Shown: positions 1-59,972 of the stretch, in pieces
Layout: the number at the start of each line of letters is the position of its first letter
How positions within the stretch are numbered: position 1 is the stretch's first letter
Origin: a virus
Lineage: Duplodnaviria; Caudoviricetes
Virus record (IMG/VR): IMGVR_UViG_3300041402_000464
Span: 1 to 59,972 of that record
DNA length: 59,972 bases
Direction: 5' to 3' (one strand)
Made by a program: the position numbers and the translations under genes
The notes under the pieces: generated by a model
Told to the model about the DNA's origin: nothing
What the model saw: the letters and a program-made list of their open reading frames with translations, nothing else
The model's database searches: none

Positions 1-127
1 TAAAAAATAATGCGGCGAAAGTATCTCTCGATGCAGCCGTTGATATGAATGTGGCAACGCAGATAAAGGAATCAGAAAAGACGGCTAACTCTGTATTCGT
101 GAGGGAAAACGGACGCAAGGTCTGGTA
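1..127. repeat. Terminal direct repeat (circular contig overlap), identical to 59846-59972
   Basis: TAAAAAATAATGCGGCG...CAAGGTCTGGTA occurs at both ends; 127 nt matches a common assembler k-mer; reading frame continues across the join. Confidence 0.97.
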
Positions 128-1754
128 TGACGTAAGTGAGCCCCTTATTTTGGAATCCCTTACCTCTCTTAATTGGGACGGGTTTAATAGCCGGGCGTTA
201 AAGGCTATGAGGAAGTTCAAGAGGGCCTTTACCATAGGCGTCACCGCTTCTCCTGAGTTCAGGATAGCCAACCTCTTGAGAGATACAATACAATCCGTAG
301 CGGTTGGTAAGATGAACTACAATGTGTTTGACAATGTGTTTGGCGCTGGATGGAAGGGAACAAAGAGGGAAAGCATCACTGAGGCGCGTATGATGGCCGG
401 AGGTGGAATGATGCACTTTGGCCATGAATATGGCGCAGACCCCGACGCAGCAAGATTGATGATCGAAAAAGGGATAAAAGATGATTACATTCTCAATAAT
501 CCAAAGGCCTTTAAGGGTGCAAAACAGGCACTTAATACCTTTTGGGACACATGGAGAGAATTTGGATCACGTCTTGAGAATGTGAACAGGGCTGCACTGT
601 ACGAAAAGAGAGTCAAGGAAGTAGGAGAGTTAAAGGCCAACTTTGAAGCAAGAGACCTGATGGACTTCACTAATCATGGCGCGGCCCCGGCGGTTCGCCT
701 TCTCATTCAGGTTGTTCCCTTTCTTAATGCAAGGATGCAGGGACTTTATAAACTCGGCGGCGCGGCCTTTGATAAAGACCAGCAACGACAACTTGCCGCA
801 GTAACCTCCATGGTGGCCTTGGCAAGTATGGCGCTCTTCCTTACCTTTAAGGATGATGACGATTTTAAGGAAAGGGAAGAGTGGGACAGAGATACATACT
901 GGTGGTTCAAGATACCAGGTAGCGATAAAGCTTTCAGGCTACCTAAGCCCTTCGAGGTCGGAGCCATAGGAACTTTGGCAGAAAGAATGTTGGAGCAGAT
1001 AGTAGATGATGAGGCACACGGGGAATTATTCGCTGAACGACTCGGGCATATGATAGTTCAGACATTTGCTTTCAGTGTTGTTCCTCAGATGTTACAGCCT
1101 ACCCTTGATATTTATTCCAATATAAACCCTTTCACGGATAGGCCGATTGAGTCTATGGGAATGGAGAGGCTTTCAAAGACTGAGCGTAAAAAGGCATGGA
1201 CCTCTGAAACGACTATAGCCATAAGCAAGGGTATGGATGCGGTACTCTGGGACAAAGTGGTATTATCCCCTGTGCAAATTGAATATATGGTAAAAGGGTA
1301 TCTTGGATGGATAGGAGCCATGACACTTGGCACTATCGATAATATCTTCATGGAGCCGCTTACGGGAGCCCCTACGGAGCCTACACGGAGAATAGACGAT
1401 TACCCTGCGGTTGGGAGGTTTGTAAGATCGAACCCTGCCAGGAATACAAAATATGCCACACTCTTCTATGAGCAGCTTCAAGAGATGAATACCGCTTACA
1501 GTGATGTTCAGAATTATCGGAAATTGAGAGAGTTTAATAAGGCAAAGGAATCCCGGCAAAAGAACGTAGAGAAGTTGCGCTGGAGAACTTATTTCAATAA
1601 ACAGCAGAAGCGCCTTAGTGGGATTACTGGCAGAATGAAGTTGATTCAGCTTAATAAAGTTATGTCAGCCACACAGAAACGCGCTGAGATCGATTTGCTC
1701 CAAAGGGAAAAGAACAGGATCCTTAAGATCGCAGTAGAGAGAAGAGATATTTAA
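1..1754 (+). CDS. C-terminal part (LPD38-like region) of the giant large polyvalent/ejection protein that begins at 51241
   Basis: Position 45 equals 59890, same frame as 51241; motifs VPFLNARMQG, REEWDRDTYW, RLPKPFEVG are typical of LPD38. Confidence 0.85.
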   Translation, partial: KNNAAKVSLDAAVDMNVATQIKESEKTANSVFVRENGRKVWYDVSEPLILESLTSLNWDGFNSRALKAMRKFKRAFTIGVTASPEFRIANLLRDTIQSVAVGKMNYNVFDNVFGAGWKGTKRESITEARMMAGGGMMHFGHEYGADPDAARLMIEKGIKDDYILNNPKAFKGAKQALNTFWDTWREFGSRLENVNRAALYEKRVKEVGELKANFEARDLMDFTNHGAAPAVRLLIQVVPFLNARMQGLYKLGGAAFDKDQQRQLAAVTSMVALASMALFLTFKDDDDFKEREEWDRDTYWWFKIPGSDKAFRLPKPFEVGAIGTLAERMLEQIVDDEAHGELFAERLGHMIVQTFAFSVVPQMLQPTLDIYSNINPFTDRPIESMGMERLSKTERKKAWTSETTIAISKGMDAVLWDKVVLSPVQIEYMVKGYLGWIGAMTLGTIDNIFMEPLTGAPTEPTRRIDDYPAVGRFVRSNPARNTKYATLFYEQLQEMNTAYSDVQNYRKLREFNKAKESRQKNVEKLRWRTYFNKQQKRLSGITGRMKLIQLNKVMSATQKRAEIDLLQREKNRILKIAVERRDI

Positions 1755-1808: not shown

Positions 1809-2141
1809 ATGCAGATGGACGATGGAAGTTTCTTAAAATGGGCTACGGGAACTATTATAGGTATACTTAGTATTGTTTTCGGTTCATATAAGTTTACCCA
1901 GAGCCAGATTGACAAACATAAAGCGGCAACCGACAAAAGTATAGAGAAACATAAGGCAGAGGTCCACGCCGCTGAATGTGTCGATGAAAAGAGTTGTAAG
2001 GAAGACAGGGACCATTTAGTTGATCACATGAAGAGAATGGCAACAGATCACGCAACCTCTTCAAAGATTATATTTTTAGAAATTAAAAGTATTAACGATA
2101 AACTCTTTGATATGGCGAAGGATGGCAACCATGGCAAGTAG
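1809..2141 (+). CDS. Small membrane protein, holin/antiholin-like
   Basis: N-terminal TM helix, AGGAGG RBS, directly upstream of endolysin. Confidence 0.5.
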   Translation: MQMDDGSFLKWATGTIIGILSIVFGSYKFTQSQIDKHKAATDKSIEKHKAEVHAAECVDEKSCKEDRDHLVDHMKRMATDHATSSKIIFLEIKSINDKLFDMAKDGNHGK

Positions 2142-2670
2142 AAGAATAGAAGACCTCGCCCCTGACGTTCAGGTAGCCGCTAATCTCATTATGGGAGCCT
2201 GTGATCACGACGGCGTTGATATTTTAATCTATTGCACTCTCAGGCCGCTGGAAGAGCAAGCAAGGCTTTACAGGCAGTCCAGGGCTTTAGTAGAGATCAG
2301 CTACAAGATTCAGAAGTTCAGAGATAGAGGTTTAGGCTTTTTGGCTGATATTCTGCAAAATACAGCCCCTTGTCATGGACCCAAAAGAACAAATGCGGCG
2401 CCGGGGGAAAGCTGGCACAACTACGCCGAGGCCTTTGACGCTGTGCCGATGGTAGGCGGTAAACCTGCATGGAACTACGACGATGCTCCTTTCGAGTGGG
2501 GAGTTTACGGTCACGCTATAAGGGACGCTGGCCTCAACTGGTCGGGTGATTGGAAGAAGTTTAAAGAGATCGCTCATGCACAGAAACGACACGGGAGCAA
2601 CCCTTTGAAAGAATATTCCCCGGAAAAAATACAGGAGATGTTAATAGCTAATGGATTACTTAAAGCTTAA
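2131..2670 (+). CDS. Endolysin, M15 family (L-Ala-D-Glu peptidase-like)
   Basis: MASRRIEDL start; TLRPLEEQARLY, NAAPGESWHNYAEAFD (SxHxxxxAxD), WSGDWKKFKEIAH motifs. Confidence 0.85.
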   Translation: MASRRIEDLAPDVQVAANLIMGACDHDGVDILIYCTLRPLEEQARLYRQSRALVEISYKIQKFRDRGLGFLADILQNTAPCHGPKRTNAAPGESWHNYAEAFDAVPMVGGKPAWNYDDAPFEWGVYGHAIRDAGLNWSGDWKKFKEIAHAQKRHGSNPLKEYSPEKIQEMLIANGLLKA

Positions 2671-3307
2671 AATACTGATTGTTTTATTTCTATTTCCTTC
2701 TTTGTCCTACGGGGCAACGCTGGAAATAAAGCTGGTCAAACCTATGAACGGGCATGAATATGATATTTCTTTATCAGATTCAATAGACGCTATCCAGTTA
2801 AAGGCTGAGTACTCCCATAGTGAAATTGAAGGTATACTAGTCGAAGACAAGGGATCTTTAGAAATCTATTATGATAGGCCTATAAATGATAAATGGAAAA
2901 CATGGTTTTTTAATATTGCTAAATACGACAATGTAAATGGAATCAGAGAAAACTACTTGGGTGCTGGGCCCAAGTATTATATATTGAAGGGGGACCATAA
3001 ATTATCGTTCAGCACGGGCATATTGGCCGATTATGACCACATTACAGGCAAATGGAAGGTAAGGGCTTCACATCGACCTGTATACTCTTACAAGGACATT
3101 GTGGAGGCCGTCTATTACTCCCAACCCGACATCAATGATTCGGATGATTACATCGAGAAATACGAAGTTAGTTCTATTGTGCCGTACACTAAAGGAGTCG
3201 GCAAGGTTTATTGCTTGAAGGAATACCGGTCTTTGATCGGGATTATAGAGAAGGAATGTGGGCTTTTATTAACTATTAAATTTGGAGAAACTAGGGAGGT
3301 GAAATAG
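2651..3307 (+). CDS. Exported protein, possible outer-membrane beta-barrel (DUF481-like)
   Basis: Signal peptide (LFLFPSLSYGA), alternating aromatic beta-strand pattern, YLGAGPKYY. Confidence 0.45.
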   Translation: MDYLKLKILIVLFLFPSLSYGATLEIKLVKPMNGHEYDISLSDSIDAIQLKAEYSHSEIEGILVEDKGSLEIYYDRPINDKWKTWFFNIAKYDNVNGIRENYLGAGPKYYILKGDHKLSFSTGILADYDHITGKWKVRASHRPVYSYKDIVEAVYYSQPDINDSDDYIEKYEVSSIVPYTKGVGKVYCLKEYRSLIGIIEKECGLLLTIKFGETREVK

Positions 3308-3311
3308 AAAA

Positions 3312-3491
3312 ATGACTAATATTAGAACAACAGCAACAGCCGTGGTAACACTCTTATCAGTATTTGCACCAAAATTTTTAGGCTATGAGATTGATGCCGA
3401 GACTCAGCTTGCTATGGTGACAGTAGGTGTAACCATTATCGGCTTACTGGCCAAGGATAGCAATGTAACCGGCGGTACAAAACGGCAGTAA
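3312..3491 (+). CDS. Holin-like protein, 59 aa, two TM helices (below ORF-track cutoff)
   Basis: Hand translation MTNIRTTATAVVTLLSVFAPKFLGYEIDAETQLAMVTVGVTIIGLLAKDSNVTGGTKRQ; lysis context; GGAGG RBS. Confidence 0.65.
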   Translation: MTNIRTTATAVVTLLSVFAPKFLGYEIDAETQLAMVTVGVTIIGLLAKDSNVTGGTKRQ

Positions 3492-3515
3492 TTAATTTTA
3501 ACAAAAGGAGAAAAA

Positions 3516-3857
3516 ATGTTTAAGAAAATAAGTATACTTCTAATGTGCGTGGCTTTCTTCTCAGCTTGTGGCTTGAACACATTACCGGCGCCCGAGAGTA
3601 CGCAGGAGAGAATAGCCTATGCAGAGGCTACATTGACCGGCATTACCATCACGGTGACAGACCTGAACGACAATAGGCTCATATCTCTTAAAGATGTCAA
3701 GTCTATGGATAAGATGATCACCGATACCGAAGACCTATTGCAGCTCGCCAAGGCAGCATTATTCGCGGCAGATGAGGCCAAGGCCAAAGGCAATCTCATA
3801 GCAGCCTTGACGCTATTAACAGAGCTTAATCGAATTATAACCGCAAGGGGGCAATGA
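3516..3857 (+). CDS. Lipoprotein, spanin-like
   Basis: Lipobox FFSA-C after hydrophobic signal; lysis cluster. Confidence 0.55.
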   Translation: MFKKISILLMCVAFFSACGLNTLPAPESTQERIAYAEATLTGITITVTDLNDNRLISLKDVKSMDKMITDTEDLLQLAKAALFAADEAKAKGNLIAALTLLTELNRIITARGQ

Positions 3858-4072
3858 TGAATGCAATAACAGTAACGACAGGGTTAAACGTATTACTTAC
3901 AGTCCTCAGTAAGGCCGCTGAATTGTCTACGCTCATACAAAAAGCCAGGGACGAGGACAGGGATATCAGCGCGGAAGAGTGGAAACAATTAGATCTTGAC
4001 CAAGCCGAAGCTCATGCCAGTCTTAAGGAATCCATAAAGAAACGCGAAGATGAAGATTTAATCAACAGGTGA
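3854..4072 (+). CDS. Hypothetical protein (lysis cluster)
   Basis: ORF coupled to upstream gene by ATGA overlap. Confidence 0.6.
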   Translation: MMNAITVTTGLNVLLTVLSKAAELSTLIQKARDEDRDISAEEWKQLDLDQAEAHASLKESIKKREDEDLINR

Positions 4073-10464: not shown

Positions 10465-10947
10465 ATGGCAAGTGAATCAACTCAGTTCAAAGAAGGCGAG
10501 GAACACACCAACTGGAAAGGTGGATATTATTATGATGCTTGTGGATACAAAAGAATATTAATATCCAAAAATACCTATCGGTGTGAGCATGTACTTGTCA
10601 TGGAAAAACATCTTGGCAGAAACCTGTTAGCAGATGAGATTGTCCATCATAAAAATGGGGTAAGGGACGATAACAGGTTAGAAAATTTAGAGTTGATGTC
10701 TCGGAGCCAGCACAACCGACTTCATCAAACCGGGAAAAAGGCTTCGGAAGAAACAAGGGCAAAATTTAGGCGTCTCAGGAAGGGTACAAATCAAAAAGAA
10801 AGTCATAACCAGTGGAGGTCTGATATAACTAAAGACAAAGTAATAGATGTTATCGCGCAAACAAAAACATTTAAAGAGGCAGCTAAATTTTTAAATATAA
10901 CTGCCGATGCACTAAGGATACGACGAAAATATTATAATTTAAAATAA
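10465..10947 (+). CDS. HNH homing endonuclease (NUMOD3-like tail)
   Basis: NWKGG, EHVLVMEKHLGR, VHHKNGVRDDNRLENLELMSRSQHNRLH. Confidence 0.9.
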   Translation: MASESTQFKEGEEHTNWKGGYYYDACGYKRILISKNTYRCEHVLVMEKHLGRNLLADEIVHHKNGVRDDNRLENLELMSRSQHNRLHQTGKKASEETRAKFRRLRKGTNQKESHNQWRSDITKDKVIDVIAQTKTFKEAAKFLNITADALRIRRKYYNLK

Positions 10948-51240: not shown

Positions 51241-54200
51241 TTGAAGGAAGTCACTGACCCTAATATATTAAGCCAGCTTGACGCCGAAGAACCAGCAGGG
51301 AAGGAAGTCACCGACCCTGCTATTATTTCTCAACTTGATGCAGGAACGCCAACCGGTAAACCTGTAACAGATCCCAATATATTAAGTCAACTTGAAGCGC
51401 CCTCCCCAGAATTATCAGAACCTAATAGACTTCGGGCTAAGTATGGTTTTCCTCCTATTGAAGATGTGCCGGCTGCTATCCCAGAACCGGGATATGACGT
51501 TCTTGGCGGGGTGGCTGATATAGGTAAGCTCTTATATGATATCCCTATTCAAACTAAAGGTGCCATAGCTCGACTTGCCGAAGAAGAAGATCCTCTTGCT
51601 ACAATCGATTGGCGCGATAGATGGGTTGAAGAGGCCGGGGCCAGAACAGAAAAAAGAATAGAAGAGCTTGGCGAAAAAGGCGAAGAGAAGGTTTTACCTT
51701 GGGTTACAAGAGGTGATATAGCTGAAACATCTGGAAGTACCGGATTCTCTCTTGCAAGTATGGCCGCTGGTGCGGCTGGTGCTGGTGCTGGTTTTATTTC
51801 GCCTGTTCCTGGTGGAGCCGCAATAGGTATGTTGGGCGCCTCGGGTGCGGCAGCCTACAAAATGGATAAGACTGCCTTTACCGCCGATCTGTTTGCTGCT
51901 ACAGAAAATGCTCTTGGCAGAAAAATGACTCCGGTTGAACGCAAAGAGTTACTTGAAAAAACAGCAGATGCAAGAGAAAGCCATGCACTTTGGGAAGCTG
52001 GGCCAGAAGCAATAGGTAATCTTCTTTCTATAGTTGGAGTGGGTCAGATATTTAAAGCGGCAGGTGGTAAAAATGTTATAAAGAAAATCGTCAAAGGTCT
52101 TGCTGGGATATATGGTGGAGAACTTACCACTGAGACTGTTACACAGATTGGACAACAACGAGCCGAAGTAGCCGCTGGTTTGTCAGACGAAGAAGCACGT
52201 TCCTTTTTATCTCTCGAAGATATAGCAACTTCATTTAAGGAAATCGCACCATCCGTAACAGTCTTGTCCTCCCTTATGGCTGGTGGTGGCGCTGTTGCTG
52301 GCGGTGTAAGTAGACAGTTAAAAAAGAAAAAAGAAGAGGCAATCCCCTCCCCTGCCCCCATAGAAGGTCAAGACACCGTTGATGCAGCCATAACAGAAGA
52401 CATCAGAAAACCTACCACGGATGAACTGGTAGAAGAGGCATATCAAAGACAGCAAGCCGCTAGACCTGCCGAGGCTATCCCTGAAAAAGAAACCGATATA
52501 CAGACACTTTTAAGAGAGATCAAGGAAGCGAAGGCCGAAGAAGCAGCACCCGGCAAAAGAGCCAAGGTTCAAGAACTTGTTGAGGAAGCTCACATTAAAC
52601 AGCAGGCCATCCCCACGGAAGCTATTGACTCTCAAGAAACCGTTGACGAGCAGATCAGGGAAGATATAACCAGAGAACCCACCGAAGAAGAAGGGTTGGA
52701 AGAGATCGGACCTGTTGAGGTTTTCCGTGTAGACAATGCCAGCGGTGCTAAAAGAGATCATTTCACTTTTGTCGGTCCCAATGCAAGGGCTGTAGCAGAG
52801 AGGGAAGCCGCGAAACTTGCCACAGCAGAAGGGCAACCTCAAAAGGTTTATGCTGTTCCCCCAGAAGAGGTTTTTGATAAAGGCGGTGTTAAGGTAGGCG
52901 AGTGGGCTCCTGGTGCTGATGTTTATGAAAACAAAGAAAAACTTGATACGGCCAAATTTGAAGCTGTGACAGATGCTATACAGCCTATGTCCGATGAAAG
53001 GATAAGGTCTTTAAATCGACTTAGAGCTATAAAGCAAAGCCCTGAACAGGCAGAAGCAGCAGCGCAGCGTCTTGGAGTAGATAGTTCAGAGATTGTTACA
53101 GCAGCCGAGAACATAGAAAAAAACGGTATGCCTACCAATGATATAGAGAGAGCCCTTGTCAATCTTGCATGGGCCGATGAACTTACCGAACAGGCACAGG
53201 TAGAGGCACCAGCTCCAATAGAAGAAGCGCCGATACAGGCAGCACTTCCTTTTGCTCCCGAAGCGGAGGCTGTGACTCCCGTTGCTCCCGAAATTGAAGA
53301 GATCGAGAGGCCAGCAGGTGTCTTCGATGATCTCTTTGCGGAAGCCAAAAAACCAAAGGCGCCTAAAAAGGTGAAAGCGGAGATCGCGGCTATCCCCACT
53401 AAAAAACCTGTCAAGGCAGAGATAGTGGGCGAGGTTTACGCAGGAGAGAAGGACGGATATAAGCTTTATGTTGATGAGGCCGCTGGTAAGAGGATTATTG
53501 AGCATCCATCTGGATCAAGGCTTGTAGAGACCACTAAAGACGGCAAGAAGACCGTTGAGGTGATCGGCAGCGCAGATGATTTTGGCAAAAGGACCACTGT
53601 TCAGGAATTGGACGACGCCAGGGAGTTAGGTGTTTCACTGGAAGCCAGGAGGCCGGAAGCTGACACCGGCATCTCTAAGCCTACGCGCGATAGTAGTCCT
53701 GCCGACACCAAATTGTTTGGCGATATTTCTAATGCTGAGGCCATCAGAGTACAAGGATTTAAGTCTCTCGACAGGGAGAGGCAACATATGGTGGTCTCTA
53801 GTATGGTTTCCGCGCTTCACGAGAAGAAGATTCTCGATTTTATTATTGAGACCGTTCCCATCAATGTGATGAACAGCCTCATCGGAAAGAAGTTTTCTGC
53901 CAAGGGATTGCTCGATAACCCAGCGATGCTCACCGATAGGCTTGCCATCCCGAGTAACAAAGCGATACCGATGCCTGTAATCAGATTTATTGATTCTTTG
54001 GCGTCCTCGCTCAAAGGTGGACTTACACGCCTTGGTGCAAAAAAATCTAGTTTGATTTTCCCTGTAACCCCAAGCGGTGCTATAGTTGATACCACAATTA
54101 GTGCAGACCAAGACCCTGCTAGACCTGTAACTAGATTGGCACGTCTTGGAGCAGAAGAACTTGATTTGCCCAGACCTGATACGACCATTCCTTCTACTGA

Positions 54201-57200
54201 AGCTATTTCCACAGGTAGAACACACAAGGATTCTCAAATTCATACCTCCGTTATAAACGAACAAGTTGTTAATGTAGATATTAACCCAACCGAAGCCCAA
54301 AAGCAAGCGGGAAATTATCTAAAAGGGACGCTCAATATTCAAGGTCTTAATATTACTATTGAGAATCCTAAAGGTTCCGAGCGCACAGGGAAAGAGGATG
54401 GCGATACATGGACATCCAAGATGCACGTTGACTACGGATACATCAAGGAGTCAGAAGGCGCAGACGGGGAGCACGTGGACGTTTATATCGGCCCTAATCC
54501 TGAAAGCGAAACTGCCTATGCAGTTCACCAGATAGAGCCTGAAACGGGCAAATACGATGAAGACAAGGTAATGATCGGCTTTGATTCCCAGGAGGAGGCA
54601 GAGGCCGCTTACCGGAAGCAGTACGACCAAGGCAAGAAGGATAAGCCAAACAGGATAGGCGCTGTTACCTCTATTGCCATAGAATCTCTCAAGGAGAAGA
54701 TTAAGGCTGATGAAGTTATTGGCGAAGAAGCTATTAAGCAGATTGAGTTTAAACCAGAGGTGGTCAAGGAAGAGGTGGCTGCTCCAACTAAAGAGAAAGT
54801 TCCGGCTCCCCCTTCTCTTCCTTTAACTCAAGAAGGCGATATACTCACCAAGTCTGGTAATCCTTTTAAAACAAGGTCAGCAGCAATAACCGGTATAGTT
54901 GCCAACAAGAAACAAGATCAGGGCTATGTTCCCATAGAGGTCGAAGGTGGTTGGGTAGCAAGATCGGAAAAAGTAGCGCCTAAATTAAAGATCGAGTCCA
55001 TTAAAGCAGAACATGATGGTGAACCTGTTACCAAGACTGAAACAAAAGATATCCTTGATGATGCCAAAGAAGAGGCAAAAGATGAAGGCATTACTCCTGC
55101 GGGACAAAAAACTTTTCTTCTTTCCGAGATTGATGATGGATTAAAGGAAGCTCCAAGCGAGTCTGAATTAGAGGGCGTGGCTCCCAGAGATTATGGCAGG
55201 GTAAAGATCGAAGTTCCCGGAGATGGCACTTTTAACATCATCAATACTAAAGAAGCCCTTACGGAGTTCAAGTCTCTTGTCAAAAAGAACTTCCCCGGCA
55301 AAGAAGCGGCCAAGAAGGTGGCAAAGAGATTTGTGCCTCCTAAGCCTACAGCAGGTAAAGCAAAGGCTCTTAAAGATGTAAGACAAGGTATCTATGAAGG
55401 CAAACCTTACCATACTGATGGGCATGTAATCCTTCTTACAAAGCCTGCTCTCAAACCCAAACAGATAGACGATTCTCGCTGGGAAGACAGACCCACTATT
55501 GATGCCAGTATAATAAAAGATTTAATTCCAAAAAAGGGCGACAAGGTTACAGATATTGAATTTGTCGCTTATGAGGCGGGTGAAAGCCAGAGCATATCTA
55601 ACCTGCCTATACCTGATCTGAGGGAAGATAAGCGATTCACTGGCGCACCGAAGGCCCGTCTTATCAGTGAAAAAGGTGAAGTTTATATTGGGCAAGACTA
55701 TTATAATTATGTCCTGAGACATTTTCCTGATGCCACCTTTCATACTACCGATGAAGTAAGTCCTGTCTTGGTCAAGGATGGCAAAAAAACAGTAGGGATA
55801 GTTATGCCTATTCGCATTGAAGCCGCAGAAGTTGGAGTTAAAGAAGTTCGGATACCGAAGGAAGTTCCCGAAGCTGTGATGTTTAGCCGCGCCGAGGCAG
55901 ATAACATCATCCAAGATAAAACCGAAACTCAAGTACAGATAAATAATCAGTGGTTCCATAAGAGGATGGTTGAAGAGCAAGGATATAATTTTGATGATCT
56001 GAAAATAGGCGAAGAAACAGCCTTTGCTCAAATAGAAAAGAAACCTCCCATAATAACTGAAGCAAGTAAAGTTGTTCCAGCTGAACTTGATACGAGTGAA
56101 TATTCCAAAATATTCAAAGATTCGGATAGTGTTCAAGATCATAATGCCAAGGTAGAAATTCATGAAACGCTAATGACTGGCGGCTTGATGACTGTTGATA
56201 CCTTGATGAATTTGCGAGATCTGAGCGAGAATCTTGAATATGACCTTGAAAGAGTTGGAGATAAAAGGTATATAAGTGAAATTATAGCAGAACATGAAGG
56301 TGAAGAGATTAAAGATGAAATTCCTACACCTCCCGAAGATGTATTTGAAGCGGCCAAGCTTTCTAAAGGAATAACAGATGACATTATGGAGGCAGGTTAC
56401 GTTCTTCCCGATGGAACCTTGTTGGATTTTTCTGGGAAAAGAGATGGTGGCCCAGCGGGAGAAAGAGCCGAAGATCATAGACAACTTGGTTTTGATATTA
56501 TCGGTGATTTTTCTCAGTTTTACAGTGGTGAAATGATAGCCTTCCAGAAGGCCGGTGCCGCAAGAATTGATGCAAATTCTGGTATGATCGATTTGGAAAT
56601 ATTGCCAACAACGGCACAACTTTCCACTATAAGAGAAGTCTTGGAAATAAAAGGTGAAGGCTATATAGATTTACAGGATGGAACTCGGACAACACATCTT
56701 GATATACAGAACCCAAGCAGAGCCGCTGGGCTTATAAAGCGTTTTTATGCCGGTGAGGATGTTGGCGGTAAGCCAGTATTTAAAAAGAAAGACTTTCTCG
56801 GAGAGGGCCTGCCGGTAGAAAAAATTAAAGAAGTCCCGTTGAAGGCTGATATAGAAGCCGCTGTTGATATCATCACTACGAAGTGGAAAAACAGAGATAT
56901 TACGACTGTGAGCAGGATGAATCAACTACCTTCTCATCTCCATGATGCCGTTATTGCGGCCAAGGGGAAGAAAGATGTTGAGGGAATATTCGACCCTGAG
57001 ACCGGAAGAGTTTATCTGATAGCTGAAAATATAGATTCGCTTGAGAGGGCTAAGACTGTTTTATTCCATGAATCCCTTGGGCACTTCGGGATAAGAGGCT
57101 TATTAGGGAAAGACATTACTCCTGTGCTTAATCAGGTCTATATCAAATACCGTGCTGAGGCCCAGAAGATTGCCACAAAGTATAAGTTCGACCTCTCCAA

Positions 57201-59972
57201 AGAACAAGGCAGGCGGCAGGCGGCAGAAGAAGTCCTTGCGAATATAGCACAGACAAATAGCGACCCCGGCATTATAAAGAAAGCAATCGCAGCTATACGG
57301 AATTGGCTGAGAAAGATGGGCTTTGATATTGAGTTATCTGATAGTGATATCCGCTCCATGATGGCCCAAGCCGCAGACTTTACCCGTGAAGGGAAGAAGC
57401 CATTGTCTATGACAGGCATGGTGGCATATGCAAAGAGAGCCCCTGCCCCTATATTCTTCTCCAAACTTCAGGAAACCATAGCCGACAAGATGCCTAGCAA
57501 GGCCCCCGTTGATACCGTGAGGGGTATTATTAGGGACGTTAAAGCCGAAGAGGTCAAGTGGTCCGGTATAGAGGATTATCTTGTTGATAAGAAAACAATA
57601 AAGAAAGATGAATTGCTTGCTTTTCTTCAGGCGAATGAGATACAGATTACGGAAGTATCGAAAGGTGATGTCACAATTAATATGGTATGGGATGGCAATG
57701 AACTGACTATCCCTGATGAGGGCATTACGCCATATTATATAGAACAAGATCCCTCCAGTGATTTATGGGATGTTTATAGTGTTGATGAAGGTGGCGTCGT
57801 TGCGACTGAAACCACAGAAGGTCGAGCAAAGGCTTCGGCGGAAGATTTAGCCAGAACTGAAACTGGTCTATTTGAAGATGAAATTGGGAAAACTAAATAC
57901 TCCCAATACACCCTCCCCGGCGGCGAGAACTACAAGGAGATGTTGCTGACATTGCCTTCGGCGGTACAAACAAAAGATGATATCGCACAATCAATTTTTA
58001 GGCTTAACTATGACCAGCTATTCCCAGGGCAAAAAGCTGATGTTGACGCAAAGATTCCAGCACCATTACCCGGCTTTGAAACCTCCCACTGGGACGAGCC
58101 AAACGTCTTTGCTCATATCCGCTTCAATGAAAGGACCGATGCCGAGGGCAATAAAGTCCTCTTCCTTGAGGAAGTTCAGAGTGATTGGGCGCTTGAGGCC
58201 AGGAAGAAGGGTATTGCCGGGGAAGTCCCTCAAGAACTGAAAGATAACTGGACTGAGGCAACAGAAGCCTTTGAAGCTGCCAGGAATGAATTGTATAAAA
58301 AATATGATATTAGCCCTACGTCAACAATGCCTTGGCCTACATTGTTACAAAAAGCAACAGAGGCAGAAACTAAACCTTTACTCGAACTCAGGGCCGAAAG
58401 AGACAAATTCGGTAGAGAGGTTGATACTTTTCTTCAGGGTGTACCCGCTGCCCCCTTCCTCACGGGCAATAAATGGACAGAGCTGGCCCTCAAGCGGATG
58501 CTCCGCTATGCCTCTGAGAATGGCTTTGACAAGGTTGCATGGATCTCCGGTCAGCAGACTGCGGATAGATATGATCTGAGTAAGGTCTTAGATAAAATAC
58601 TATATAGTCAAAATGAAGATGGCACTTATAACATACTTGGTTTAGAAAAAGGCCAAGAGATAGCGTCTATAGCTCATAAAAACCTATCAGACAGTGATTT
58701 AGAACGCTTTGTTGGTAAAGATGTAGCGACTAAAATAATAAAAGATGAGGGTACTAAAGCAGGGGAGCAAATTTTCAGGCAAGATGCAAGTGAACTCTCT
58801 GGCGAAGACCTCAAAGTAGGCGGCGAGTGGGCCTTTACTCTCTACGATAAAGTCATTCCTAACTTCCTGAAGAAATATGGTAAGAAGTGGGGGGCTAAGG
58901 TTGGGGAGAGTGAGATACCTATAGATAGAGATAAAGCTTTACTCACCTTTGATGAGAGGGAAAGGATGGAGGGGGAAGATATTACCCCTTCAATGACTCA
59001 GCAATCCATCGACATAACTCCCGAAATGAAAGAAGCCGTACTTGAAGGCAGACAGCCGATGTTTGCCCGTAAAGAAGTGGAGCCAGCTTTCCGTAGAGAT
59101 TATACCACTGCACAACAAGAAGCACTTGGAAAGATTGCTCCTGAGATAAAGAAGGAGACAGTAGCGGAAAAGTTGGCTGACTTGAAAGAAAACCTTGGCA
59201 TCAAGATAAAGCAATCAGTTGTCGATCAATACGCCTCTCTTAAAGAACTTACGAAGCATGGATATATGCTTGCGCGTATGAGTAATACGGCATCGGGGAA
59301 GTTGGAAGCTATCTTTAGGCATGGCAAGCTTAGGATGCTAAAAGATGGAGCCATAACTGTTGATACTACCGGTAAAGGGCTTGCCAATATACTTGCTCCT
59401 CTCGGCGGCGAGCTTAACGATTTCTTTGCATGGATCGCGGGGAACAGGGCCGAGGGTTTGGCAAAAGAAGATAGAGAAAGATTATTTGATAAAACGGATA
59501 TCGAAGCATTAAAGGCTCTCAATCAAGGCAAGATGGAAGATGGCAAAGCAAGGCCGATTGTATACGCACAGGTTCATAAGGAATTTAAAGACTTCCAGAA
59601 GTCCGTACTTGATGTTACGGAACAATCAGGTCTTATCAATAAAGAAGAAAGGGCAATCTGGGAGCAGAACTTTTACATACCCTTCTATCGTGTTTTGGAA
59701 GAACAGGCAGATACTCAGGGGCCTAAGACACTTGAATCTCTCACCGGACAGACGGCTATCAAACGTCTTAAAGGGGCAGATATAAAACTTAATGACCTGC
59801 TTTCAAACGTGCTGATGAATTGGAATCATCTTATTGGTGCATCATTAAAAAATAATGCGGCGAAAGTATCTCTCGATGCAGCCGTTGATATGAATGTGGC
59901 AACGCAGATAAAGGAATCAGAAAAGACGGCTAACTCTGTATTCGTGAGGGAAAACGGACGCAAGGTCTGGTA
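51241..59972 (+). CDS. Giant large polyvalent/ejection protein, continues through 1-1754 (3452 aa in total)
   Basis: GGAGG RBS + TTG; no closed ORF in this frame in the track, consistent with an open frame to the contig end; iPPase-like domain (~54270-54630), zincin HESLGH (57067-57084), EEVQSDW domain. Confidence 0.88.
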   Translation, partial: MKEVTDPNILSQLDAEEPAGKEVTDPAIISQLDAGTPTGKPVTDPNILSQLEAPSPELSEPNRLRAKYGFPPIEDVPAAIPEPGYDVLGGVADIGKLLYDIPIQTKGAIARLAEEEDPLATIDWRDRWVEEAGARTEKRIEELGEKGEEKVLPWVTRGDIAETSGSTGFSLASMAAGAAGAGAGFISPVPGGAAIGMLGASGAAAYKMDKTAFTADLFAATENALGRKMTPVERKELLEKTADARESHALWEAGPEAIGNLLSIVGVGQIFKAAGGKNVIKKIVKGLAGIYGGELTTETVTQIGQQRAEVAAGLSDEEARSFLSLEDIATSFKEIAPSVTVLSSLMAGGGAVAGGVSRQLKKKKEEAIPSPAPIEGQDTVDAAITEDIRKPTTDELVEEAYQRQQAARPAEAIPEKETDIQTLLREIKEAKAEEAAPGKRAKVQELVEEAHIKQQAIPTEAIDSQETVDEQIREDITREPTEEEGLEEIGPVEVFRVDNASGAKRDHFTFVGPNARAVAEREAAKLATAEGQPQKVYAVPPEEVFDKGGVKVGEWAPGADVYENKEKLDTAKFEAVTDAIQPMSDERIRSLNRLRAIKQSPEQAEAAAQRLGVDSSEIVTAAENIEKNGMPTNDIERALVNLAWADELTEQAQVEAPAPIEEAPIQAALPFAPEAEAVTPVAPEIEEIERPAGVFDDLFAEAKKPKAPKKVKAEIAAIPTKKPVKAEIVGEVYAGEKDGYKLYVDEAAGKRIIEHPSGSRLVETTKDGKKTVEVIGSADDFGKRTTVQELDDARELGVSLEARRPEADTGISKPTRDSSPADTKLFGDISNAEAIRVQGFKSLDRERQHMVVSSMVSALHEKKILDFIIETVPINVMNSLIGKKFSAKGLLDNPAMLTDRLAIPSNKAIPMPVIRFIDSLASSLKGGLTRLGAKKSSLIFPVTPSGAIVDTTISADQDPARPVTRLARLGAEELDLPRPDTTIPSTEAISTGRTHKDSQIHTSVINEQVVNVDINPTEAQKQAGNYLKGTLNIQGLNITIENPKGSERTGKEDGDTWTSKMHVDYGYIKESEGADGEHVDVYIGPNPESETAYAVHQIEPETGKYDEDKVMIGFDSQEEAEAAYRKQYDQGKKDKPNRIGAVTSIAIESLKEKIKADEVIGEEAIKQIEFKPEVVKEEVAAPTKEKVPAPPSLPLTQEGDILTKSGNPFKTRSAAITGIVANKKQDQGYVPIEVEGGWVARSEKVAPKLKIESIKAEHDGEPVTKTETKDILDDAKEEAKDEGITPAGQKTFLLSEIDDGLKEAPSESELEGVAPRDYGRVKIEVPGDGTFNIINTKEALTEFKSLVKKNFPGKEAAKKVAKRFVPPKPTAGKAKALKDVRQGIYEGKPYHTDGHVILLTKPALKPKQIDDSRWEDRPTIDASIIKDLIPKKGDKVTDIEFVAYEAGESQSISNLPIPDLREDKRFTGAPKARLISEKGEVYIGQDYYNYVLRHFPDATFHTTDEVSPVLVKDGKKTVGIVMPIRIEAAEVGVKEVRIPKEVPEAVMFSRAEADNIIQDKTETQVQINNQWFHKRMVEEQGYNFDDLKIGEETAFAQIEKKPPIITEASKVVPAELDTSEYSKIFKDSDSVQDHNAKVEIHETLMTGGLMTVDTLMNLRDLSENLEYDLERVGDKRYISEIIAEHEGEEIKDEIPTPPEDVFEAAKLSKGITDDIMEAGYVLPDGTLLDFSGKRDGGPAGERAEDHRQLGFDIIGDFSQFYSGEMIAFQKAGAARIDANSGMIDLEILPTTAQLSTIREVLEIKGEGYIDLQDGTRTTHLDIQNPSRAAGLIKRFYAGEDVGGKPVFKKKDFLGEGLPVEKIKEVPLKADIEAAVDIITTKWKNRDITTVSRMNQLPSHLHDAVIAAKGKKDVEGIFDPETGRVYLIAENIDSLERAKTVLFHESLGHFGIRGLLGKDITPVLNQVYIKYRAEAQKIATKYKFDLSKEQGRRQAAEEVLANIAQTNSDPGIIKKAIAAIRNWLRKMGFDIELSDSDIRSMMAQAADFTREGKKPLSMTGMVAYAKRAPAPIFFSKLQETIADKMPSKAPVDTVRGIIRDVKAEEVKWSGIEDYLVDKKTIKKDELLAFLQANEIQITEVSKGDVTINMVWDGNELTIPDEGITPYYIEQDPSSDLWDVYSVDEGGVVATETTEGRAKASAEDLARTETGLFEDEIGKTKYSQYTLPGGENYKEMLLTLPSAVQTKDDIAQSIFRLNYDQLFPGQKADVDAKIPAPLPGFETSHWDEPNVFAHIRFNERTDAEGNKVLFLEEVQSDWALEARKKGIAGEVPQELKDNWTEATEAFEAARNELYKKYDISPTSTMPWPTLLQKATEAETKPLLELRAERDKFGREVDTFLQGVPAAPFLTGNKWTELALKRMLRYASENGFDKVAWISGQQTADRYDLSKVLDKILYSQNEDGTYNILGLEKGQEIASIAHKNLSDSDLERFVGKDVATKIIKDEGTKAGEQIFRQDASELSGEDLKVGGEWAFTLYDKVIPNFLKKYGKKWGAKVGESEIPIDRDKALLTFDERERMEGEDITPSMTQQSIDITPEMKEAVLEGRQPMFARKEVEPAFRRDYTTAQQEALGKIAPEIKKETVAEKLADLKENLGIKIKQSVVDQYASLKELTKHGYMLARMSNTASGKLEAIFRHGKLRMLKDGAITVDTTGKGLANILAPLGGELNDFFAWIAGNRAEGLAKEDRERLFDKTDIEALKALNQGKMEDGKARPIVYAQVHKEFKDFQKSVLDVTEQSGLINKEERAIWEQNFYIPFYRVLEEQADTQGPKTLESLTGQTAIKRLKGADIKLNDLLSNVLMNWNHLIGASLKNNAAKVSLDAAVDMNVATQIKESEKTANSVFVRENGRKVW
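53635..54243 (-). CDS. HNH homing endonuclease nested antisense in the polyvalent gene
   Basis: Two CxxC...FFCxxxC Zn modules, EHRWVIEQSLGR...VHHIDGNGLNNKIENL, C-terminal HTH GLSIRNIAKQFGVGRTTIARRL. Confidence 0.85.
   Translation of the reverse strand: MNLRILVCSTCGNSFSRRNGRIRSGQIKFFCSKTCQSSYRSSRVLVCTNCGINYSTAWGYRENQTRFFCTKACKSTFERGRQRINKSDYRHRYRFVTRDGKPIGEHRWVIEQSLGRKLLSDEAVHHIDGNGLNNKIENLLLVKRGNHTRDHHMLPLPVERLKSLYSDGLSIRNIAKQFGVGRTTIARRLRDAGVSFRPPGFQ
59846..59972. repeat. Terminal direct repeat, copy of 1-127
   Basis: Exact match to window start. Confidence 0.97.

Follow-up and report, generated by a model that had tools for sequence, protein, structure and literature searches.

A predicted HNH homing endonuclease gene lies antisense inside an uninterrupted giant phage gene, as do a clade of its relatives

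Introduction

Homing endonucleases are thought to persist by riding in self-splicing introns or inteins, or by sitting between genes. Free-standing endonuclease genes of phages sit between genes or split a gene into pieces, whereas I-HmuI, an endonuclease of the HNH_3 type, is encoded within a self-splicing intron. In nuclear group I introns, the endonuclease gene can lie on the strand opposite to the host gene, but these introns reside in eukaryotic rDNA and are spliced, so that no host reading frame has to stay open (PMC9548176). A further, unspliced form was described in 2025 as the ShiLan domain, an HNH endonuclease with Zn fingers hidden in a mycobacteriophage DNA methylase (Arsenault, Gosselin and Gogarten, PMC11855218). 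The ShiLan insertion leaves the host frame open, shows no intron or intein features and is patchily distributed among close relatives, with the HNH being read from the third frame of the same strand.

Here, we analyzed a 59,972-nt stretch of Caudoviricetes DNA (IMG/VR record IMGVR_UViG_3300041402_000464, positions 1 to 59,972; hereafter the window), for which an original prediction, made from the sequence alone, proposed that an intact HNH endonuclease is hidden antisense inside an uninterrupted polyvalent-protein gene. Polyvalent proteins are very long, multi-domain phage proteins (Iyer et al., 2017, PMC5512222). We confirm this observation, and find that a clade of related HNH genes is nested in the same way in other phages.

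Results

An intact HNH gene within an open host frame

We first examined the open reading frames of the locus. On the minus strand, an ORF spans 53635..54306 (223 aa from a TTG, 202 aa from the ATG at 54243), and on the plus strand an ORF spans 51241..59970 and is open to the end of the record. Because the record is a complete virus genome with a 127-nt terminal repeat, the plus ORF continues in frame to position 1754, giving a gene of 3,452 codons by arithmetic. The features of the locus are as follows.

51241..59972, plus strand: giant polyvalent-protein gene (host gene), running off the record end and continuing through the 127-nt terminal repeat to 1754
3..1754, plus strand: C-terminal continuation of the same gene, with the LPD38 domain at about nt 855-1409
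53626..54270, no strand assigned: inserted cassette of 645 nt, or 215 host codons, with boundaries good to a few nt
53635..54243, minus strand: HNH endonuclease ORF, 202 aa plus stop (stop at 53635-53637), in codon register with the host frame
54025..54222, minus strand: two Zn-ribbon modules (aa 8-73; CxxC...FCxxxC twice)
53791..53967, minus strand: HNH catalytic core (aa 93-151; invariant H106, H125, H126, N134, N138, H147 and H151)
53671..53772, minus strand: C-terminal helix-turn-helix (aa 158-191)
54244..54270, minus strand: 27-nt leader of the cassette with GGAGGT directly before the ATG
54271..54330, plus strand: conserved block at the start of the InPase coding region, an inferred candidate recognition site
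54292..54702, plus strand: InPase domain of the host protein (aa 1018-1154 of the plus ORF), directly after the nested ORF

The minus-strand protein matched Pfam HNH_3 (E=2.6e-9, above cutoff) and HTH_7 (2e-6) and the PHROG HNH endonuclease family (1.9e-19), had 19,491 homologs at E<=1e-3, and kept all 16 invariant columns of a 30-sequence family alignment, including the seven His and Asn residues of the core and C47, C50, C69 and C73 of the second Zn ribbon. The first ribbon, at C8/C11/C31/C35, is shared with full-length homologs. An AF2 model reached a mean pLDDT of 88.8. As to a beta-beta-alpha-metal fold, the model resembled I-HmuI (1u3e) with a middling score (Z 6.1, rmsd 2.9, 64 residues, 25% identity), while Foldseek gave E=0.12 and nothing at E<=0.001, and a PDB sequence search matched only the HTH and Zn-finger parts, so that the structural comparison does not settle the fold; nuclease activity was not assayed. 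The host protein carries InPase (1.9e-45) and LPD38 (2e-35), and its homologs carry many LPD, ART, methylase and helicase domains, as expected for a polyvalent protein.

We next asked whether the open host frame could be due to chance. The two frames are in codon register, such that TTA, CTA and TCA codons of the HNH would read as stops in the host gene, and none of these occurs among its 20 Leu and 18 Ser codons. Under the phage's own codon usage this has a probability of 1.9e-5, and 0 of 6074 223-codon windows of the phage's genes are free of these codons. However, a 215-codon stop-free antisense run exists elsewhere in the same host gene, and 6 of the 59 relatives not classed as nested (see below) also have a stop-free antisense register over the ORF alone. 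The single-locus estimate is therefore softer than 2e-5, and the argument rests on the repeated pattern described below.

The original prediction further reported TATAAC and TCTACA hexamers ahead of the ATG, compatible with a leaderless promoter. Both hexamers are present as described, but this idea was not supported: the -35 hexamer lies in host flank, and the TCTACA-17-TATAAC site failed the criteria of a promoter scan and was not listed. The scan found 3 minus-strand sites against 1.5 +/- 1.3 expected, thus no convincing antisense promoter, and no RNA data were examined. In the window's own copy, the GGAGG ends only 1-2 nt before the ATG.

The nested gene is an insertion that is polymorphic among relatives

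An alignment of homologs showing an insertion of about 200 residues had been named beforehand as a test of the interpretation, and such an insertion was indeed seen. The related proteins P0003 and P0004 join ...DDARE directly to (D)VD..PT(D/E)AQ and lack exactly plus-frame residues 396-610 of our query, corresponding to nt 53626-54270, whereas the related protein P0002 carries the segment. Between the window and P0002, identity is 94.0% in the insert (202/215), 77.4% in the left flank and 68.9% beyond InPase, consistent with recent lateral spread, although dual-coding constraint could contribute. By the shortest mutational path, 7 of the 13 host-frame changes are synonymous for the HNH, and none hits an invariant column. 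HNH intactness in P0002-P0004 is inferred from the host-frame protein, as their DNA was not analyzed.

Contigs assembled from sequencing runs gave a matching picture. An independent assembly of run X1, possibly the source sample, matched 52400-55300 with 0 differences, and contigs from two other studies span the junctions, with filled junctions in runs X2 (one 6,886-nt contig across 53389-54678, 0 gaps) and X4. In X1, a 151-nt contig of depth 3.1 shows the same empty junction as P0003 and P0004, beside the filled contig of depth 28.9. Both-frame dN/dS was not computed on these close variants.

We found no signs of splicing. No Rfam family matched at E<=1 in 53000-55000, a search that covers only described families and hence leaves a group I or II ribozyme core neither demonstrated nor excluded. 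No Pfam family, and thus no Hint/intein family among those described, matched the host-frame peptide, and the junction residues (Leu...Val-Val|Asn, with the insert beginning with Leu and being followed by Asn-Val) are not the Cys/Ser/Thr nucleophiles that define inteins.

A clade of related HNH genes is nested in the same register

A screen of other large polyvalent genes for nested antisense HNH genes had likewise been proposed as a test, and it recovered the same arrangement many times. Of 80 viral loci returned, 4 were dropped because the ORF was under 100 aa; in addition to the window, 17 of the 76 evaluated loci are nested. A scan of genome contigs with a closer alignment gave 15 nested loci of 80, one of which duplicates a viral locus, amounting to 31 distinct nested copies in the two collections. 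Every locus classed as nested is in register 0, which our criterion required; an all-register scan found long antisense frames in another register only in loci L102 and L117, and none of the 160 related loci shows same-strand nesting. The hosts are polyvalent proteins with varied domains, including ddrB-ParB, ART-PolyVal, LPD22, MuF, RadC and Acb1, and varied insertion sites. One nested copy (locus L098) lies on a 716-kb contig of a cultured bacterium, Aromatoleum anaerobium LuFRes1, probably in a prophage, though this was not confirmed, so that the idea can be tested at the bench.

In a phylogenetic tree, 17 of 18 nested rows, together with locus L006, fall in one clade (SH-aLRT 95). The nested label needs 3 changes against a shuffled mean of 16.3, and 0 of 500 shuffles were as low. 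The tree is a quick search with 43 of 70 inner branches weak, and the nested locus L028 lies outside the clade on a long branch. TTA/CTA/TCA codons numbered 0/432 in nested copies against 341/979 in free relatives, a difference that was replicated in the genome loci (0/333 against 438/1465). Nested copies also avoid codons that read TAN/TGN in the host frame (34/975 against 607/1938). A Shine-Dalgarno-like 4-mer precedes 9 of 17 starts against a 7% background (P=6e-7).

The original prediction had also asked for an estimate of selection in both frames. Across 136 pairs of nested relatives, differences per HNH codon position are 0.525/0.419/0.627, as expected if the HNH frame is the selected one, and HNH identity is 0.38 against 0.244 for the host-frame peptide. 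The HNH frame is thus the conserved one, while the host frame is merely kept open. Comparing the insertion sites, the block at 54271..54330 is conserved and abuts the cassette in the window and in loci L005, L007 and L087, whereas the left flanks are unalignable.

Other searches were less productive. Single-protein scans of viral contigs with the upstream host segment and with the HNH found no relatives. A word-based search of a 5.8-billion-protein collection with the HNH returned one weak hit (P0001) and no self-hit. The host-frame peptide gave nothing when searched against proteins of 378-2000 aa, a range that excludes P0002 (2645 aa), and a scan of metagenome contigs gave two distant loci (L003 and L004), which were not analyzed further.

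Discussion

Our data are best explained by a compact mobile cassette (27-nt leader, 609-nt HNH gene and 9-nt trailer, 645 nt in total) inserted antisense and in codon register into the polyvalent-protein gene, at the N-terminal boundary of its InPase domain, an explanation in which we have good confidence. The analysis itself shows that the cassette is an insertion relative to close homologs, that the host frame reads through it as 215 extra residues, that the endonuclease frame is the one under purifying selection, and that a whole clade of related HNH genes lives the same way in other polyvalent genes. Beyond this, we infer that the HNH is made from an antisense transcript and nicks or cuts cassette-free alleles of related co-infecting phages near the conserved InPase start, with recombinational repair copying the cassette in (intron-less homing). 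Expression, cleavage and homing were not measured here. We also infer that, because the cassette is neither spliced out nor free-standing, the phage survives only if the host frame stays open, a filter that would have removed TTA/CTA/TCA from the endonuclease's codons, and that multi-domain polyvalent proteins tolerate the extra peptide between or even within domains. The proposed interpretation, an element that keeps its antisense frame open and is tolerated as linker, is thus supported by each of its tests that we ran, although 'linker' may be too simple and the suggested 'third strategy' has a same-strand precedent in print (PMC11855218).

Among alternative readings, true dual coding, in which the host-frame 'shadow' peptide has become a functional module of the polyvalent protein, survives best but appears unlikely. 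In its favour, an AF2 model built on 4 sequences predicts helices with pLDDT of about 70-88 for the middle of the peptide, at model residues 85-190, such that the peptide may be more than an inert linker, shadow peptides mimic the host in lacking Cys and are 5-fold poor in Tyr and Trp, and TAN/TGN codons are depleted. However, the model is shallow, with the five models ranging from 42 to 64 mean pLDDT, shadow identity is lower than HNH identity, the shadow's third positions are not the most variable, no Pfam or PHROG family matches the peptide, and homologs function without it. A similarly unlikely possibility is that the HNH has been domesticated for a phage function, such as excluding competing phages, helping recombination or packaging, or controlling the polyvalent gene through antisense transcription. 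Long persistence under purifying selection, the SD-like motifs and the several roles of HNH enzymes in phages (PMC11855218) would fit this view, but the presence/absence polymorphism among close relatives and within one sample, the higher similarity of the insert than of its flanks, and the many different insertion sites are all marks of a mobile element. A chance passenger, that is, an ordinary free-standing HNH gene whose antisense frame happened to be open, is very unlikely: frame -1 is the most permissive overlap and stop-free runs occur elsewhere, but this reading is already contradicted by the clade-wide pattern, with no stop-shadow codons in 17 and 14 distinct nested copies against about 30-35% in free relatives. 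Although homing endonucleases usually ride in introns or inteins, and Rfam and Pfam hold only described families, removal by an unrecognised element of this kind is the least likely, as, in addition to the absent signatures, RNA splicing would remove any need for the open frame that 31 distinct copies keep and an endonuclease on the opposite strand cannot be an intein domain.

It is more likely than not that a diversified clade of HNH homing endonucleases has specialised in living antisense, codon-for-codon in register, inside the giant polyvalent genes of phages, needing neither splicing nor an intergenic site. In this view, its codon usage has been reshaped so that the host frame never meets a stop and hardly ever meets TAN/TGN codons, and each insertion hands the host protein about 200 new residues, a possible source of new polyvalent-protein modules. 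The arrangement is a habit of a whole clade, not a single oddity, and gives a clean natural case of long antisense dual coding (about 200 codons) with a measurable codon signature. It further shows that giant anti-defence polyvalent genes are landing pads for mobile DNA, and suggests one way such proteins may gain new sequence. It also shows that standard gene calling hides these genes; because gene callers discard such nested ORFs, this class of mobile element would be largely invisible in current annotation.

Literature searches, which did not extend to supplements, found no description of antisense HNH genes nested in polyvalent or other open phage genes. The account of polyvalent proteins (PMC5512222) covers the type of host gene found here, but does not mention antisense, homing, intein or opposite strand, and its one HNH mention is unrelated. 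The endonuclease genes of nuclear group I introns (PMC9548176) share the opposite-strand orientation, but lie in spliced introns. With free-standing phage homing endonucleases and I-HmuI, the window's HNH shares presence/absence polymorphism and an element more similar than its flanks, and its core resembles that of I-HmuI with a middling score, but it sits inside an uninterrupted ORF on the other strand. The closest precedent is the ShiLan domain, whose HNH is a distant homolog of the one described here (31-33% over residues 67-182) and is likewise carried by a homing-type insertion that is read through in the host frame without splicing signals. The ShiLan paper contains none of the words antisense, reverse, complement, opposite or polyvalent, and does not report a codon-level signature or a specialised clade. 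Whereas the ShiLan HNH is encoded on the same strand as its methylase host, which we confirmed, the HNH genes described here are antisense and in codon register, and their hosts are polyvalent proteins.

The giant gene and its antisense HNH gene

The virus record is complete, with a direct terminal repeat of 127 nt at positions 1-127 and 59846-59972, and nearly all of its long ORFs are encoded on the plus strand. The last of these ORFs runs off the end of the record and continues in frame through the repeat to position 1754, such that annotation of the linear record would cut the gene in two. By calculation from the ORF ends and the repeat length, the gene comprises 3,452 codons. It carries an InPase domain and, near the C-terminus, an LPD38 domain, the marks of a phage polyvalent protein. 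The features are as follows:

51241..59970 (+), continuing in frame to 1754: polyvalent gene, with InPase at aa 1018-1154 (E=1.9e-45) and LPD38 near the C-terminus (2e-35)
53635..54306 (-): HNH ORF within the polyvalent gene, 223 aa from TTG or 202 aa from the ATG at 54243
53626-54270: inserted cassette of 645 nt, comprising a 27-nt leader, the 609-nt ORF and a 9-nt trailer
55522-56163 (-) and 52923-53414 (-): other long antisense ORFs (213 and 163 aa) inside the giant gene
10465-10947 (+): second, free-standing HNH gene (160 aa)

We first asked whether the minus-strand ORF represents a real HNH endonuclease. Pfam searches matched HNH_3 (2.6e-9) and HTH_7 (2e-6), and the PHROG family 'HNH endonuclease' was matched at 1.9e-19. 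A search of 1.84 billion representative proteins yielded 19,491 homologs at E<=1e-3, the best sharing 58% identity. Moreover, the protein keeps all 16 invariant columns of a 30-sequence alignment, including four Cys, the His-His pair, two Asn and two further His. The AF2 model has a mean pLDDT of 88.8, with its core aligning to I-HmuI at a middling Z score of 6.1 (rmsd 2.9, 64 residues) and its tail aligning to HTH domains. The original prediction of an intact HNH endonuclease lying antisense within an uninterrupted giant gene is thus correct, also in its position. The free-standing HNH gene is 44% identical to residues 121-174 of the nested one, but has 8 TTA/CTA/TCA codons in 161, so its antisense frame is closed.

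The cassette is an insertion and shows no signs of splicing

Because an insertion of about 200 residues relative to homologs had been put forward as a test, we searched with host residues 450-1250. Three homologous proteins were found: P0002 (2,645 aa), which covers the region fully, and P0003 (4,156 aa) and P0004 (2,479 aa), which match on both sides only. In pairwise alignments, P0003 joins ...QELDDARE directly to DVDTSPTDAQ, and P0004 does likewise. Both proteins lack residues 396-610 of the query, corresponding to nt 53626-54270, that is 215 codons or 645 nt. Between the window and P0002, host-frame identity is 94.0% in the insert (202/215), as compared to 77.4% in the left flank, 90.3% in InPase and 68.9% beyond.

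A chimeric assembly had likewise been named as a possible refutation, and we therefore aligned public contigs to positions 52400-55300. A 23.7-kb contig of sequencing run X1, possibly the source sample, is identical over all 2,901 nt. In the same run, a 151-nt contig at depth 3.1 (against 28.9) follows the left flank to 53621 and then continues as the empty junction, translating DDAREDVDTSPTDA. A 6,886-nt contig of run X2, from another study, crosses 53389-54678 with 107 differences and no gaps, whereas contigs of run X4, from a third study, cross both junctions. The insertion is not an assembly artefact. Filled and empty alleles therefore coexist, once within a single sample. All four runs holding the cassette (X1-X4) are labelled marine sediment or cold seep metagenomes, and the closest relatives in the genome collection (loci L087 and L088) sit in contigs binned as Desulfobacteraceae and Deltaproteobacteria MAGs, which is a hint at the host group only.

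We next looked for signs that the segment is spliced out, an outcome that would have spoken against the proposed arrangement. No Rfam family matched at E<=1 in 53000-55000, a search that covers described families only, and no Pfam or PHROG family matched the host-frame peptide. The host-frame junction residues (Leu ... Val-Val | Asn-Val) are not intein nucleophiles, and the endonuclease is on the wrong strand to be an intein domain.

The two frames are in exact codon register, so that host stops correspond to the HNH codons TTA, CTA and TCA. The HNH gene has none of these among 20 Leu and 18 Ser codons. With the phage's own usage (29% and 20% of those codons), the probability of this is 1.9e-5, and none of 6,074 windows of 223 codons in the phage's genes is free of them. 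However, one 215-codon free run exists elsewhere in the giant gene, and the two other long antisense ORFs, which were not searched against families, show that long open antisense runs occur here without known coding content. In addition, 6 of the 59 viral relatives not classed as nested (see below) are also stop-free in this register over the ORF alone (L035, L071, L052, L024, L050 and L073), but have no long host ORF. Of these, L035 also shows the nested-type scarcity of NTA/NCA codons (1 of 28) and may thus be a formerly nested or mis-assembled case.

Related HNH genes are nested in other polyvalent genes

The decisive result came from extending the analysis to relatives of the HNH gene; a screen of other large polyvalent genes for nested antisense HNH genes had been suggested in advance. 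A profile scan of IMG/VR returned 80 loci, in 26 of which an antisense frame is open over the whole match. Four loci whose ORF was under 100 aa were dropped. Of the remaining 76, 17 have no antisense stop and an open frame extending at least 100 codons beyond, or to the locus end. These open frames are often over 1,000 codons, and all are in register 0. Two of the loci, L007 and L008, are identical. The nested loci are the closest relatives of the window's HNH. Their host ORFs are polyvalent proteins with varied content, namely InPase, MuF_C/Phage_Mu_F, ddrB-ParB with DEAD/ResIII, Acb1, 2',5'-RNA-ligase-like, LPD22, ART-PolyVal and N6_Mtase.

The insertion sites differ. The cassette lies just before InPase in the window and in loci L005, L007 and L087, after InPase in L012 and L065, inside the InPase domain in L019, and next to other domains elsewhere. 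In L019 (host ORF 2053-3966, minus strand; HNH at 2935-3468, plus strand), InPase residues 25-97 and 95-144 of the window's domain align on either side of a ~176-residue insert, and the host is an InPase-MuF protein next to the portal gene. A close relative of the cassette in L006 (1826-4287) lies between a separate 222-aa InPase ORF and a RadC-like ORF, with an antisense frame that is open only over the cassette (234 aa). This may be a split-gene version of the same insertion.

An independent scan of one genome per prokaryotic species found 15 nested among 80 loci, one of which duplicates L007. One nested copy is on a 716-kb contig of the isolate Aromatoleum anaerobium LuFRes1. Two more distant HNH relatives, L102 and L117, lie under long antisense open frames (923 and 782 codons) in a different register, L102 being from a high-GC genome (GC 0.65); these two loci were not examined further. 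No same-strand nesting was seen in the 160 loci.

In a quick ML tree of 77 rows, 17 of 18 nested rows plus L006 form one clade (SH-aLRT 95). The nested label needs 3 changes as compared to a shuffled mean of 16.3, and 0 of 500 shuffles were as low. The nested locus L028 falls elsewhere on a long branch, and many inner branches are weak.

Selection and codon usage

Selection in the two frames, another of the comparisons proposed beforehand, was examined over 136 nested pairs. Differences per HNH codon position are 0.525/0.419/0.627, and HNH identity (0.38) exceeds host-frame identity (0.244), which is the pattern of purifying selection on the HNH frame. By the shortest mutational path, 7 of the 13 host-frame differences between the window and P0002 are silent in the HNH, and none touches an invariant column. 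An SD-like 4-mer lies 4-18 nt before 9 of 17 nested starts, against a 7% background (P=6e-7), whereas in the window itself the GGAGG is unusually close to the ATG.

Codon counts in nested HNH genes and free relatives
TTA/CTA/TCA among Leu+Ser(TCN), viral loci: nested, 0 of 432; free relatives, 341 of 979
TTA/CTA/TCA, genome set: nested, 0 of 333; free relatives, 438 of 1,465
GTA/ATA/GCA/ACA/CCA, viral loci: nested, 34 of 975; free relatives, 607 of 1,938 (Fisher 6e-81)
GTA/ATA/GCA/ACA/CCA, genome set: nested, 27 of 760; free relatives, 842 of 3,131

The scarcity of the second codon class was unexpected. These codons read as Tyr, Cys or Trp in the host frame. Accordingly, the shadow peptides hold 0.5% Tyr, 0.2% Trp and 0.1% Cys, as compared to 2.5%, 1.0% and 0.1% in the surrounding host proteins of the 17 nested loci, which are themselves almost free of cysteine. 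Phe is not depleted. These data do not distinguish selection on those residues from avoidance of codons one step from a stop.

Predicted host-frame peptide and candidate target

To explore what the insertion adds to the host protein, we modeled left flank, insert and InPase with AF2 from 4 sequences. The model has a mean pLDDT of 64, with the other four models at 42-53. It gives low confidence (<50) for model residues 42-83 and 191-259, helices at about 70-88 for residues 85-190, and a beta-rich InPase. Although the model is weak, the prediction looks like a module held on two floppy tethers rather than a plain linker. In the four loci with the cassette before InPase, about 40 nt of the InPase start directly abutting the 5' end of the cassette are strongly conserved, whereas the left flanks are unalignable. 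This fits recognition of the conserved InPase start, which is an inference.

Comparison with known systems

The original interpretation, in which the element keeps its antisense frame open and is tolerated within a modular protein without being spliced out, is supported. Our data show the intact gene, its insertion and its repeated nesting, whereas recognition of the InPase start as well as expression, cleavage and homing are inferred. In an incomplete body of full texts searched without supplements, we found no account of antisense HNH genes nested in open phage genes, and the paper on polyvalent proteins (PMC5512222) has no occurrence of antisense, homing or intein. The closest precedent is the 'ShiLan domain' (PMC11855218), an unspliced insertion in a mycobacteriophage methylase whose third same-strand frame encodes an HNH with Zn fingers. 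A tblastn search with the nested HNH hit those phages at 31-33% identity, and the sequence record confirms the same strand. The paper does not use the words antisense, reverse, complement, opposite or polyvalent. Relative to this recently described kind of insertion, what is new is that the HNH gene is antisense and in codon register with its host, that the arrangement is clade-wide and found in polyvalent genes, and that it comes with a codon signature.
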